A stretch of 58,089 nt of DNA from Candidatus Omnitrophota bacterium. GTDB taxonomy: Bacteria; Omnitrophota; Gorgyraeia; Zapsychrales; Fredricksoniimonadaceae. The stretch's first letter is position 1, and the number at the start of each line of letters is the position of its first letter. Position numbers: made by a program. This document shows, piece by piece, positions 35,001 to 38,000 of this stretch. Location: the NCBI GenBank assembly GCA_903908245.1, contig CAIVRE010000028.1, positions 1 through 58,089 on the forward strand, in the 5' to 3' direction.

Positions 35001-38000
35001 ACATAAACTTCATAAAAATCCGCGATCCTTCCGGCCTATGGCCGTCAGGATGACGTTCCGACACTTAAATCCGTCGGCGCACGGCCGATACTCTCCAAAA
35101 GTTCTTTCGTCACCCTGATCTGCTCGCCCAGCGGATCATCCTGATGCGCCCGGCCAGGATAAATATCATACAACGCACGCCGGTCGACAGGCGTAACATT
35201 GAGCATCACCGAATTGGCCCCGGCCATCAGCCCTTCACGCCGCGCCCGGGGATCCAGCGTTTCAAGCCCCGTCGTGACCAGGATCTTGGCCTGCGCCAGA
35301 AGAACGAACCGCGCCGCTGCCAACACTCCGATAACATCATCCACCGAAGGCCGTGCCACTTTCGCGAAAGGCGTCACCGGATGCGGCAGCACCGGGCCCA
35401 GGGAAAGCATTTCAACATTCAGGTCACGGGCGAGCTCCAGGTCACGGACAATATCTTCGGCCGTCTGCCCGGGAAGGCCGACCAGCGAACCGGTCAGGAT
35501 CAGATACCCCAGCTCGGCGGCATGACGGATCTCCGCGAGGCGGTCCGAAAGTTTGCAGCCCGGATGAAGCCGTTCATACATTTCAGGTGATGATGTCTCA
35601 AACCGCATCAAAAGCCCGCGCGCGCCGGCCTCATAGAGACGGCTTAACCCCGTACGGCCGACCTCGCCGAAACTGATAAAGACCAGCACACCGAAACGCC
35701 GCTTGACCTCGGCGACAATATCAACCAGCTCATCGATCGTGCGCCCGGGGTCCTCCCCGCTCTGCAAGACCAGCGCCTTGAACCCGTATTCCTCGACCGC
35801 CACGCGTACCGCCTCGAATATCTCGTCGGCCGTCATCCGGTAGCGCGTCAGCTCCTCGCTCAAACATGAAATACCGCAATAATGGCACCCTTGGGCACAA
35901 TGATTCGATATCTCAACGATCCCGTGCACACAGCAGGAATTGCTGTGATGCTTCTGGCGCAGATTGTTCGCCGCGCTCAGGAAAAATTCGCGCTCCGCGG
36001 GATCCTTGATCCTGAGCAGATAAAGGATATCCTCTGACGAAAGCTTTTCCCCTGCCGCAGCCGCGTCCATCATCGCGCGCACACGGTCGAATCGCTTCTT
36101 CCCCCAGGGGGTCAGCTGGCTGGACTTCGCGTCCAATTCCTGCAGTTCAAAAAACAGGTCTTTCCAGGTGGACAGGGTCGCCTCGGCCTCACGCGCCGAC
36201 ACCCGGCTGATCACGAACCCGCCCTGGGCATACACATAATCCCCGACCTTCAGGTTGGTCAGTTCATTGATCGCTTTCTTCTCTTCCCCGAAATAATCAA
36301 CGACCGCGAACTTGCCCCCGACGAACTCCTTGACCCGACCGGGAATGGCGTAGCACATGGGATCCGTTAACCTGTGATCGATTCAATAAAGAACTCTTTG
36401 CCGGAGTCCGTAGGTTTGCCCAGGACCTGGCATTTCGGACAGGACATCTGGGAGCCCTTCTTGGGAAACAATCCCGAACAGGCAGGGCACTGAAGCTTGG
36501 CAGGAACGAACAAAACCACGAGCTTCACCCCTTCCAGCGAAGTCCCGTCGACGAATTCTTCCCAGTGAAGGCGCATCGACATTTCATCGAAGCCCAATGC
36601 TTCGCCGACCACGACCGTAACAGCCGATGGCGTTACGATCTTCTTTTCCGCGATCATCTTCTGGGCGTGAGCGACCAGATGCTGGACCTGATGGGATTCA
36701 TGCATATAAAACTCCATTCGAATTAACGTCAGATCGCCGGGCGACCCATCGGGTCGCCCCTACACTCATGGATTATCCGGCCGACTGGACGGCTTTAAAC
36801 ATGTCTTTGGAACGAGCCGTCGAAACCGGCGCGTATTTGGTGTCCAGCGCCAGGCACTTCTTGGGGCAGACCTCAACACAATAATTACAGGAAATACAGC
36901 GCAGACGGTCGATCTCCCAGGACTTGGGTTCTTTGGTCACCGCAATAGCGGCCGTCGGACATTTCTTTTGGCAGATGCCGCAAAAGATACATTTTTCAAG
37001 CTCGATATTAACGCTGCCGCGCGCGCCCTGCGGATAAACCTTTGGAACGAACGGATACCGTTCGGTCACCGGCCCGGTGAACAAATTCTTCAGAACAACT
37101 TTGGAAAAACCCATGAATGACATAATTCCCTATCTTTCCGCGCAACTGATACAAGGGTCGATCGTCAGAACGATCACCGGAACATCCGCCAGCTGACAAC
37201 CGGCCAGCGTGGCCAGCAGCGGCGGGATATTGGCGAACGTCGGCGTACGCACCCGCAGGCGCGACAAGAACTTCGTACCATTGGCTTTTGCATAATAGAT
37301 CGCTTCGCCGCGGGGCTGCTCGCTGCGCATAAAGAATTCACCCGCAGGATTGCCTGTCACCTTGACCTCGATCGGGCCGTCGGTCATCTTCCCGACGCAT
37401 TGCTCGATCATCACAAAAGAAGCATCCATCTCGCGCATGCGCACCATACAACGGGCGTAACAATCACCGGCCGTCTCCGTAACAGGCGTGAACCCGATCC
37501 TGTCATACCCCGAATAACCCGTCGAACGGATATCCTGGGCAATGCCGCTGCCGCGCAGCATTGGCCCGACAGCGCCAAGGCTGATGGCATCCGCCCGGGA
37601 AAGAAGGCCAACGCCCTGCATGCGATGCTTGACCGTCTGGTCTTTCATGAACTGCTCGCAAAGCTGCGCAATGTCCTTGCGGTACACATTCATCTTCTTC
37701 ATGATCTCGTCCATCTTGACCGACGATATATCCCGGCGGACCCCGCCGATCTTGGCCGACCCGAAAATAACACGGCCGCCCGTGGTCTCTTCGATAATAT
37801 CAAGGATCTGCTCGCGCAAACGCCAGGACTGCATGAACATGCTCTCGAACCCGAAACTGTCTGCGGTCAAGCCCAGCCACAGCAAATGGCTATGGATCCG
37901 GGAAAGCTCCGACCAGATGATCCGCAGGTACTGCGCGCGGTCCGGCACCTGGACCTTCATGAGCTCCTCAATGGCCATGCAATAGGTCAGGCCATGGATA

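Follow-up and report, generated by a model that had tools for sequence, protein, structure and literature searches.

How does a [NiFe] hydrogenase come to have beside it a gene that joins a carrier protein of its own maturation pathway to an enzyme resembling one that matures [FeFe] hydrogenases? The question is raised by a stretch of 58,089 nucleotides (nt) from a Candidatus Omnitrophota bacterium (contig CAIVRE010000028.1 of assembly GCA_903908245.1), referred to here as the window, whose numbering is used for all coordinates in Table 1. One open reading frame (ORF) of the window encodes a HypC-like domain fused to a HydE-like radical S-adenosylmethionine (SAM) domain, and follows the genes of an Ech-type [NiFe] hydrogenase. 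On balance we favour the view that this ORF encodes a dedicated [NiFe]-hydrogenase maturase, which would use a radical SAM route to a mononuclear Fe-CO/CN unit and hand that unit to its fused HypC domain. The weaker claim, that the fusion protein serves the maturation of [NiFe] hydrogenases, we consider likely.

Is the fusion what it appears to be? An earlier note, made from the bare sequence, had described a HypC-like N-terminus with Cys2 kept and AQGGF in place of the usual histidine motif, followed by a radical SAM domain of the HydE/PylB/BioB type with CxxxCxxC and YxxYPG motifs. Both domains proved to be real. The protein, of 437 amino acids (aa), begins with MCYAIPG, has YAQGGF at the place of the HypC VHxGF motif, and carries C154-x3-C158-x2-C161 and YDIYPG. 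Pfam HupF_HypC (PF01455) matches residues 1-65 over the full profile (E 4.6e-14; score 52.7 bits, cut-off 28.5), and HypC of T. kodakarensis aligns end to end with residues 1-68, Cys2 being kept and the histidine of its VHTGF motif falling on Gln45. Pfam Radical_SAM matches residues 148-309 (E 1.4e-16). The top NCBIfam model is HydE (TIGR03956), which matches residues 99-425 with 230.1 bits, below its curated cut-off of 254.6, and the stricter HypC model TIGR00074 gives 39.2, below its cut-off of 48; no curated NCBIfam model covers the fusion. Weaker NCBIfam matches are to PylB (133.6; cut-off 348), BioB (92.7; cut-off 225), HmdB (66.3) and HydG (55.3).

Comparison of the radical SAM part with sequences in the PDB gave the same ranking, with HydE of T. 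maritima (TmHydE) at E 1.5e-59, PylB at 6e-24 and BioB at 9e-15. Identity to TmHydE is about 40% in a BLAST-type alignment and 35-36% in the Foldseek structural alignment. An AlphaFold2 model, made with 55 family members, has a predicted local distance difference test score (pLDDT) of 92 and a predicted template modelling score (pTM) of 0.91, and consists of a five-strand oligonucleotide/oligosaccharide-binding (OB) fold, a long helix, a helical linker and a triosephosphate isomerase (TIM) barrel; the helix of the HypC domain begins at residue 55 and runs into the linker up to residue 80. The top Foldseek matches of this model are TmHydE entries (target-normalised TM 0.90-0.96; root-mean-square deviation 1.7-3.1 Å), with PylB and BioB behind. 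The radical SAM domain, for which the earlier note had also weighed a place with BioB or PylB, therefore groups with HydE by sequence and by fold, and identity as BioB or PylB was ruled out on the same scores. A protein engaged in radical SAM chemistry unrelated to hydrogenases, such as BioB- or PylB-like sulfur insertion or rearrangement or the handling of Fe-S clusters, with the HypC-like OB fold as a generic cysteine carrier, would accord with a score below the HydE equivalog cut-off and with one of the inconsistent names that databases give to members of the family (HydE, HypC, radical SAM protein and, at JGI for some members, biotin synthase). We regard this as highly improbable, since HydE is by far the best match on every measure, HydE-specific residues are conserved and the gene context is specific to hydrogenases.

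An assembly or frameshift artefact was ruled out as well, since the same architecture is found in all of the best 120 protein clusters from a collection of 5.8 billion proteins, each with both Pfam domains and a length of about 433-437 aa, and in 60 loci; the family as a whole has more than 120 clusters. An exhaustive search of representatives at 50% identity gave about 20 full-length fusion clusters, the next matches below them being ordinary HydE-like proteins of 330-360 aa with 33-42% identity. The 60 loci were obtained from a scan of species-representative genomes and cover at least five phyla; the metagenome-assembled genomes (MAGs) concerned are labelled as Omnitrophota, Margulisiibacteriota/WOR-1/Saganbacteria, Spirochaetota (Brevinematales), Auribacterota and Patescibacteria (Buchananbacteria, 33-37% identity), and some fusion-bearing bins as Planctomycetes or Gammaproteobacteria. 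The window itself is part of a 229-kb metagenome scaffold in ENA (ERZ18626762 scaffold_13), and its closest named relatives are Omnitrophota. Relatives do not have the two domains as separate, unlinked genes; they are joined almost throughout: among 81 proteins with the Cys-x-His signature described below, 76 carry the HypC domain, two are fragments at contig edges and three are apparently unfused. The fusion clade shares 38 nearly invariant positions, and the spacing of its domains varies, with a linker of 39, 26 or 14 residues.

What separates these proteins from orthodox HydE is the product site. In TmHydE, M224 and M291 hold the Fe(I)(CO)2(CN)S units for dimerisation, K309 takes part in a radical relay, V105 and L157 line a hydrophobic cavity, and the S3 (product) site is where R54, T134, R155 and T269 touch the cyanides; mutation of an S3 residue impairs maturation (PMC11826987, PMC10114646). 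We aligned 71 fusions with 131 other HydE-like proteins and checked the TmHydE numbering against the PDB alignment, which gave the expected amino acid for every residue. Conserved in the fusions are C63/C67/C70, Q107, V105, L157, M224 (70/71), M291 (69/71), T269 and a basic residue at position 309 (Arg in 43, Lys in 26); M317 and M385 of the window protein correspond to M224 and M291. At S3, all 71 have Cys at Tm position 52 and His at position 54, position 134 is Phe, Tyr, Cys or Ile and position 155 is Gly or Ala, so that not one of R54, T134 and R155 occurs in any of them, whereas each of these three residues is present in about 81-84% of the other HydE-like proteins. The tree set accordingly splits cleanly into sequences of the type C-H-[FYCI..]-[GA] and those of the type x-R-T-R, to which nearly all others belong. 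Cysteines for an auxiliary cluster are absent from the fusions, and no cysteines other than Cys2, Cys143 and the triad of the SAM cluster are invariant in the family.

Since Tm positions 52 and 54 share a β-strand (E141-151 of the model) with a spacing of two residues, the side chains of Cys143 and His145 are predicted to face the cavity, as that of R54 does. The grouping does not depend on the signature itself: a neighbour-joining (NJ) tree computed after removal of the four signature columns recovered the Cys-x-His clade with 80 of its 81 members. Strict monophyly of the clade was obtained in 0 of 100 bootstraps, owing to two borderline sequences, the fragment P0151 falling inside and P0141 outside. 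Judged by sequence, the radical SAM domain forms a HydE-derived clade of its own, in which the product site has been rebuilt, and is not an orthodox HydE.

The HypC domain is likewise altered. Met1-Cys2 and Pro6 are invariant in the family, with Cys2, which in HypC becomes a ligand of the Fe and of the large subunit, found in 73 of 73 members, and the position of the canonical HypC histidine is occupied by Gln in 60 of these, by Thr in 10, by Ala in two and by Tyr in one, but by His in none. The corresponding H51 of E. coli HypC is thought to help to hold iron on the HypC-HypD scaffold, and its exchange abolishes activity (PMC12134894). Its complete absence from the family fits a HypC domain that no longer works on HypD.

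A different N-terminal carrier fusion of a HydE-like enzyme was encountered in the same set of sequences. P0199 has a 'Se/S carrier protein-like' domain (PF11823) and is grouped with P0225, P0237 and P0239 (about 424-444 aa), the latter three by length, N-terminus and S3 signature only; the signature of this group is D-R-T-N. It may be that carrier-domain fusions with matching changes at the product site are a recurrent theme of HydE-like enzymes. The HypC domain was found in none of the R-type (R54) HydE-like proteins, and the apparent case of P0225 was rejected as a false positive of a regular expression within its Se/S-carrier-type N-terminus.

With which hydrogenase is the fusion associated? 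The ORFs of 61 loci were clustered without prior labels, and the recurrent clusters were then named with NCBIfam and Pfam. A [NiFe] large-subunit gene is present in 40 loci, and about eight more have another [NiFe] subunit or accessory gene before the contig ends. Three kinds of hydrogenase are found beside the fusion, namely Ech-type group 4e enzymes (12 loci, the clade of the window), Mbh/Mrp-type group 4 enzymes (10 loci) and sulfhydrogenase-like group 3b enzymes, to which all the Patescibacteria loci belong. The genes are co-directional and recur in the order structural genes, HycI-type endopeptidase, HypA-like gene and fusion, often followed by Rex and then HydG. In Patescibacteria the fusion, with or without HydG, lies inside the group 3b structural operon; in L050-L055 (Patescibacteria/Buchananbacteria-type) its place is between the beta/gamma and delta/alpha genes.

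Both [NiFe] cysteine motifs (RxCGxC and DPCxxC) are kept in 39 of the 40 large subunits. HycI accompanies precisely those large subunits that have a C-terminal extension and is absent where the protein ends just past the motif. In L050-L055, for example, the group 3b large subunits end in ...DPCISCATH with no extension, and HycI is missing. The set of accessory genes therefore matches what the adjoining hydrogenase requires. The HypA-like gene beside the fusion encodes only about 84 aa in many loci (e.g. L053:16544-16798; the cluster covers 32 loci); these short proteins keep the MH(D/E) N-terminus, and their match to the HypA models stops at about residue 70, ahead of the expected place of the Zn-finger half. 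In MAG nDJH6bin14 an ech-hypA-fusion unit occurs on two separate contigs (L007 and L008), the fusions being 65-66% identical to that of the window, which suggests either that this genome has the Ech-plus-maturase module in duplicate or that the bin is mixed.

All [NiFe] hydrogenases are currently considered to require six Hyp proteins (PMC12134894). Our phmmer queries were HypB, HypC, HypD, HypE and HypF of E. coli, together with HydG, HydF and [FeFe] HydA from related loci. The six-frame search of the window found no HypB, HypD, HypE, HypF, HycI, HydG, HydF or [FeFe] HydA, and Pfam scans of most ORFs of at least 200 aa agree, which bears out the earlier note's statement that hypB/D/E/F and hydA/F/G are missing from this stretch. 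Over the window and the 61 loci, about 1.06 Mb in all, phmmer gave no match to HypD, HypE or HypF, and no separate HypC was found, the four HypC queries matching fusion ORFs only; HypB was matched in a single locus of the 61 (L017). HycI, HypA and HydG recur in this same DNA.

These absences bear on the possibility that the fusion is a partial helper of the canonical pathway, in which HypD, HypE and HypF encoded elsewhere would make the cyanides, and the fusion, together with HydG where present, would supply CO or an Fe-CO unit as an anaerobic counterpart of HypX. Such a role would bear on where the CO of the [NiFe] site comes from in anaerobes, a question described as the most pressing one still open (PMC12134894), and would fit the frequent scattering of hyp genes in genomes as well as the Ech-type loci that have no HydG nearby. 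We regard it as a serious rival but an unlikely one: about 1 Mb of DNA near the hydrogenases holds no HypC other than the fused one, which lacks the histidine that serves on the HypCD scaffold; HypA and HycI lie beside the hydrogenases, and HypD, HypE and HypF in none of the 40 [NiFe]-linked loci; and, as HydG makes both CO and cyanide, HypE and HypF would be redundant wherever HydG is present.

The second radical SAM gene of these loci is a canonical HydG, with TIGR03955 scores of 452-593 bits (cut-off 312). Along its entire length it shares 57% identity with the crystallised HydG of T. italicus (TiHydG), including the GPHTIS segment and, at the C-terminus, the auxiliary-cluster motif CX2CX22C, and its identity to HydG of cultured Thermodesulfovibrio is about 68%. 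Of 59 loci, 25 have HydG at a distance of no more than 10 kb from the fusion, and the share varies with locus type: HydG is found in 9/10 Mbh-type loci, in 7/13 of the group 3b loci outside the candidate phyla radiation (CPR) and 2/7 of those from Patescibacteria (CPR), in 3/3 loci with an [FeFe] context, and in 0/5 loci of the '423-aa' type. In L010, L058, L043 and L050 the two genes overlap, or all but touch, at a start or stop codon. The link is closest where HypC, HydE-like domain and HydG form one ORF of about 900 aa, as in L025, P0123 (906 aa) and P0131 (881 aa). The triple fusion of L025 is encoded on a complete 1.5-Mb Omnitrophota chromosome (CP070797.1; L025:10001-12766), directly downstream of an Mbh-type hydrogenase, HycI and HypA, and its HydG part scores 488.6 bits (TIGR03955).

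How might such a protein work? HydE proper brings two Fe(I) units together at its Arg/Thr/Arg S3 site, where they dimerise for delivery to HydF. The barrel of the fusion would take in at its top an Fe-cysteinate precursor with carbonyl and cyanide ligands, the likeliest candidate being the [Fe(Cys)(CO)2(CN)] complex (complex-B) that HydG makes from tyrosine, and the 5'-deoxyadenosyl radical would attack the cysteine sulfur, as in HydE. In place of dimerisation, a single Fe-CO/CN unit would be captured on Cys143-x-His145 and would move to Cys2 of the tethered HypC domain, which would insert it into the apo large subunit, here EchE. HypA would then add nickel, supplied via NikMN, and HycI would trim only those large subunits that have a C-terminal extension. 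The fusion system would in this way take over the tasks of HypD, HypE and HypF.

The wider proposal, that in several uncultured phyla the Fe(CN)2CO centre is built in the absence of HypD, HypE and HypF along a path from HydG through the HypC~HydE-like fusion to the large subunit, with both CO and CN derived from tyrosine, we put forward more tentatively and consider somewhat doubtful. The earlier note had suggested a hybrid or alternative route for the Fe-ligand centre of a group 4 hydrogenase. The idea of such a route is supported by the occurrence of the fusion in [NiFe] operons, by the frequent adjacency of HydG and by the lack of HypD, HypE and HypF in about 1 Mb of flanking DNA; its restriction to group 4 is too narrow, because group 3b enzymes also appear to be served.

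Several observations weigh against a dedicated [NiFe] maturase. The synthon made by HydG has two CO and one CN, and the [NiFe] site one CO and two CN, so that a ligand exchange step must be assumed. One extra cyanide is released by HydG per synthon (PMC10114646), which makes an exchange of CO for CN chemically conceivable, although it is still an assumption. The Ech-type clade, that of the window itself, has a HydG within 10 kb in 0/12 loci, and none was placed on Ech-type fusion contigs among the best 120 HydG matches; the connection of the window gene with HydG is therefore by homology only, through relatives that are 50-57% identical. The residues that HydE uses for dimerisation, M224 and M291, are retained in the fusions. 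Bootstrap support for the clade in the NJ tree is moderate (57%, with P0151 and P0141 allowed either way), and the genomes that carry the fusion are all uncultured MAGs, the system being known from sequence alone. There are also [FeFe] contexts. In L043, L044 and L045 the fusion directly follows HydG, HydF and a NuoF-like gene come further downstream together with [FeFe] HydA, and no [NiFe] gene is present in 10 kb; in L009 and L065-68 (the organism of P0030) an [FeFe] hydrogenase is encoded a few kb beyond the unit of group 3b genes, HycI and fusion.

The fusion in L043, L044 and L045 looks like the HydE of a HydEFG set. The order in L043 (8622-20810) is Rex, NfnAB-like, HydG, fusion, epimerase, HxsC-like radical SAM protein (736 aa), Rex, HydF, Cache sensor kinase, NuoF-like and [FeFe] HydA, and the fusion itself, of 392 aa with a short linker, scores 258.9 bits on TIGR03956, just over the cut-off of 254.6. 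Could the family then be a plain HydE for the [FeFe] H-cluster, its HypC-like domain being an adaptor or carrier towards HydF and its proximity to [NiFe] genes a mere clustering of hydrogen-metabolism genes? The loci just described, the score of the L043 protein and the retention of M224, M291 and K/R309 would agree with this. We judge it improbable all the same, since HydF occurs in only 3/59 loci and [FeFe] HydA in few (L009, L043 and L045, and separately fetched L065-68), compared with a [NiFe] large subunit in 40, and since the cyanide-contacting S3 residues, which are sensitive to mutation in HydE, are replaced in every member. The Patescibacteria loci, moreover, show only a group 3b [NiFe] enzyme, with the fusion embedded in its operon, and HypC has no known clients other than HypD and the [NiFe] large subunits. 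L019 is instructive in this respect, as it encodes hydF-hydG-hydE with a true R-T-R HydE (359.6 bits) and in addition a fusion after a group 3b operon, HycI and HypA; that fusion is therefore an extra paralogue and not the HydE of its cell.

The same locus argues for a division of labour and so speaks against a dual-purpose maturase, in which one HydG and the fusion would feed both classes of hydrogenase, the HypC domain routing the product to [NiFe] enzymes and its release to HydF serving [FeFe] enzymes. The occurrence of both contexts within one clade that is nearly invariant at so many positions, and the orthodox nature of a HydG so close to that of Thermodesulfovibrio, would be accounted for by such an arrangement, to which we likewise assign a low probability.

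Set beside known systems, the dedicated maturase that we favour is a new HydE-derived clade joined to a modified HypC, that is, known parts in a new wiring. It resembles TmHydE (TIGR03956), its best match in sequence and fold, in the CX3CX2C motif, in the conserved residues and in having HydG often adjacent or fused. It differs in scoring below the HydE cut-off, in the change of R54/T134/R155 to Cys-x-His/Phe/Gly, in its N-terminal HypC domain and in its location in [NiFe] rather than [FeFe] operons, with HydF rarely nearby. With HypC/HybG/HupF it shares a full-length domain match, Met-Cys2 and Pro6, the OB fold with a C-terminal helix and a position after hypA; these are, however, free proteins of 75-90 aa, whereas here the domain is fused to an enzyme of 340 aa, has Gln, Thr or Ala for the histidine (H51 in E. 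coli) and has no HypD partner gene in the window or the 61 loci. The presumed delivery of Fe-CO/CN by Cys2 of HypC, followed by HypA-dependent nickel insertion and HycI cleavage, is common to the canonical pathway of HypCD with HypE and HypF, although the ligands would derive from tyrosine via HydG and not from carbamoyl phosphate. A precedent for tethering HydE to the acceptor of its product is green-algal HydEF, which Posewitz et al. are said to have described in 2004 as a fusion of HydE to the scaffold that receives its product; there the partner is a C-terminal HydF GTPase scaffold, and here it is an N-terminal HypC. HypX, too, is an accessory enzyme outside the HypA-F core, from which the [NiFe] site has been proposed to receive a diatomic ligand, but its fold and chemistry are unrelated (formyl-tetrahydrofolate-derived and coenzyme A-dependent) and it belongs to aerobes.

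Neither a HypC-radical SAM fusion nor a role of radical SAM enzymes or HydG in [NiFe] maturation was found in searches of full-text literature, including a 2025 review (PMC12134894), and maturation genes are not discussed in the papers on Margulisbacteria hydrogen metabolism and on Auribacterota of Ace Lake. If the proposed route is correct, it would be a second biosynthetic route to the [NiFe] cofactor and would give these anaerobes a defined source of CO and CN. It would also constitute an evolutionary bridge, in that the maturation of [NiFe] and [FeFe] hydrogenases, thought to be separate, would share machinery. HypA, the fusion and HydG, with or without HycI, would then be a compact accessory set for the heterologous production of [NiFe] hydrogenases, and the family makes the question of the anaerobic CO source testable with a small and defined set of genes. 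Matches to HydG or HydE-like proteins in such genomes should not be taken as markers of [FeFe] hydrogenase.

Table 1. Position of the fusion ORF, its parts and its neighbours in the 58,089-nt window (Tm, T. maritima HydE)
Feature	Coordinates	Strand	Remarks
Whole fusion ORF	35045..36358	minus	437 aa + stop, ATG start; HypC domain, linker, HydE-like radical SAM domain
HypC-like domain, residues 1-68	36155..36358	minus	Five-strand OB fold; PF01455, HypC alignment and model
Gln45, at position of canonical HypC His	36224..36226	minus	HypC alignment
Linker, residues 69-98	36065..36154	minus	Helical in AlphaFold2 model
HydE-like radical SAM (beta/alpha)8 barrel, residues 99-437	35048..36064	minus	TIGR03956, TmHydE, Foldseek
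C143-V-H145	35924..35932	minus	Replaces Tm H52-I-R54 at S3 (product) site; invariant in 71/71 fusions
Radical SAM cluster motif C154-AQG-C158-HY-C161	35876..35899	minus	Invariant in 71/71 fusions
F227 (Tm T134)	35678..35680	minus	S3 partner change
G248 (Tm R155)	35615..35617	minus	S3 partner change
CbiM+PDGLE (NikMN-type Ni/Co uptake component)	33950..34852	minus	Syntenic in close relatives
hypA	36367..36705	minus	112 aa from MHE start; Zn-site CxxC...CxxC present
echABCDEF, group 4e [NiFe] hydrogenase	36773..41776	minus	Upstream of hypA
EchE large subunit	37130..38209	minus	RICGIC and C-terminal DPCISCAER, without extension
ExbD, ExbB	41828..42852	minus	MotA/TolQ-type pair directly upstream of Ech operon

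The neighbours named in the earlier note, echA-F and hypA before the fusion and nikMN after it, are all in place. The genes on this strand follow one another in the order H+-pyrophosphatase, ExbB, ExbD, EchA-F, HypA, fusion and CbiM+PDGLE (NikMN), with 8 nt between the stop codon of hypA and the ATG of the fusion and a gap of 192 nt between the fusion and CbiM+PDGLE. Since EchE ends at DPCISCAER with no C-terminal extension, an endopeptidase is not needed here. A scan for promoters and terminators around the operon gave nothing above shuffled controls. The second radical SAM gene of the window (30485..31615) was considered as a HydG or HydE and rejected, being a generic, unrelated SPASM-type enzyme. 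An ExbB/ExbD pair directly upstream of a hydrogenase operon, which in the window is itself preceded by the H+-pyrophosphatase, is also found at an unrelated group 3b locus of another lineage (L065:4157-5204) and in L001 and L002.

Elsewhere in the window, and likewise on the minus strand, two tandem genes (1345..5717) encode Schlafen group-3 helicase-domain proteins of 657 and 800 aa, the second with a C-terminal S24 (LexA-like) peptidase domain; they may form a defence or stress module. A cluster at 15933..19145 (minus) comprises phosphotransacetylase, a full acetate kinase (425 aa) and an N-terminally shortened acetate-kinase-like ORF (339 aa), and is consistent with a fermentative, ferredoxin-dependent and H2-evolving lifestyle that makes use of Ech. 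Finally, an ORF of 133 aa downstream of nikMN (33498..33899, minus) has no Pfam or NCBIfam match, and its family recurs in nine loci from Ech-type and Mbh-type Omnitrophota. The representative in L028 begins with a lipoprotein-like signal sequence, and in the Mbh-type loci members of the family lie a few genes downstream of HydG.

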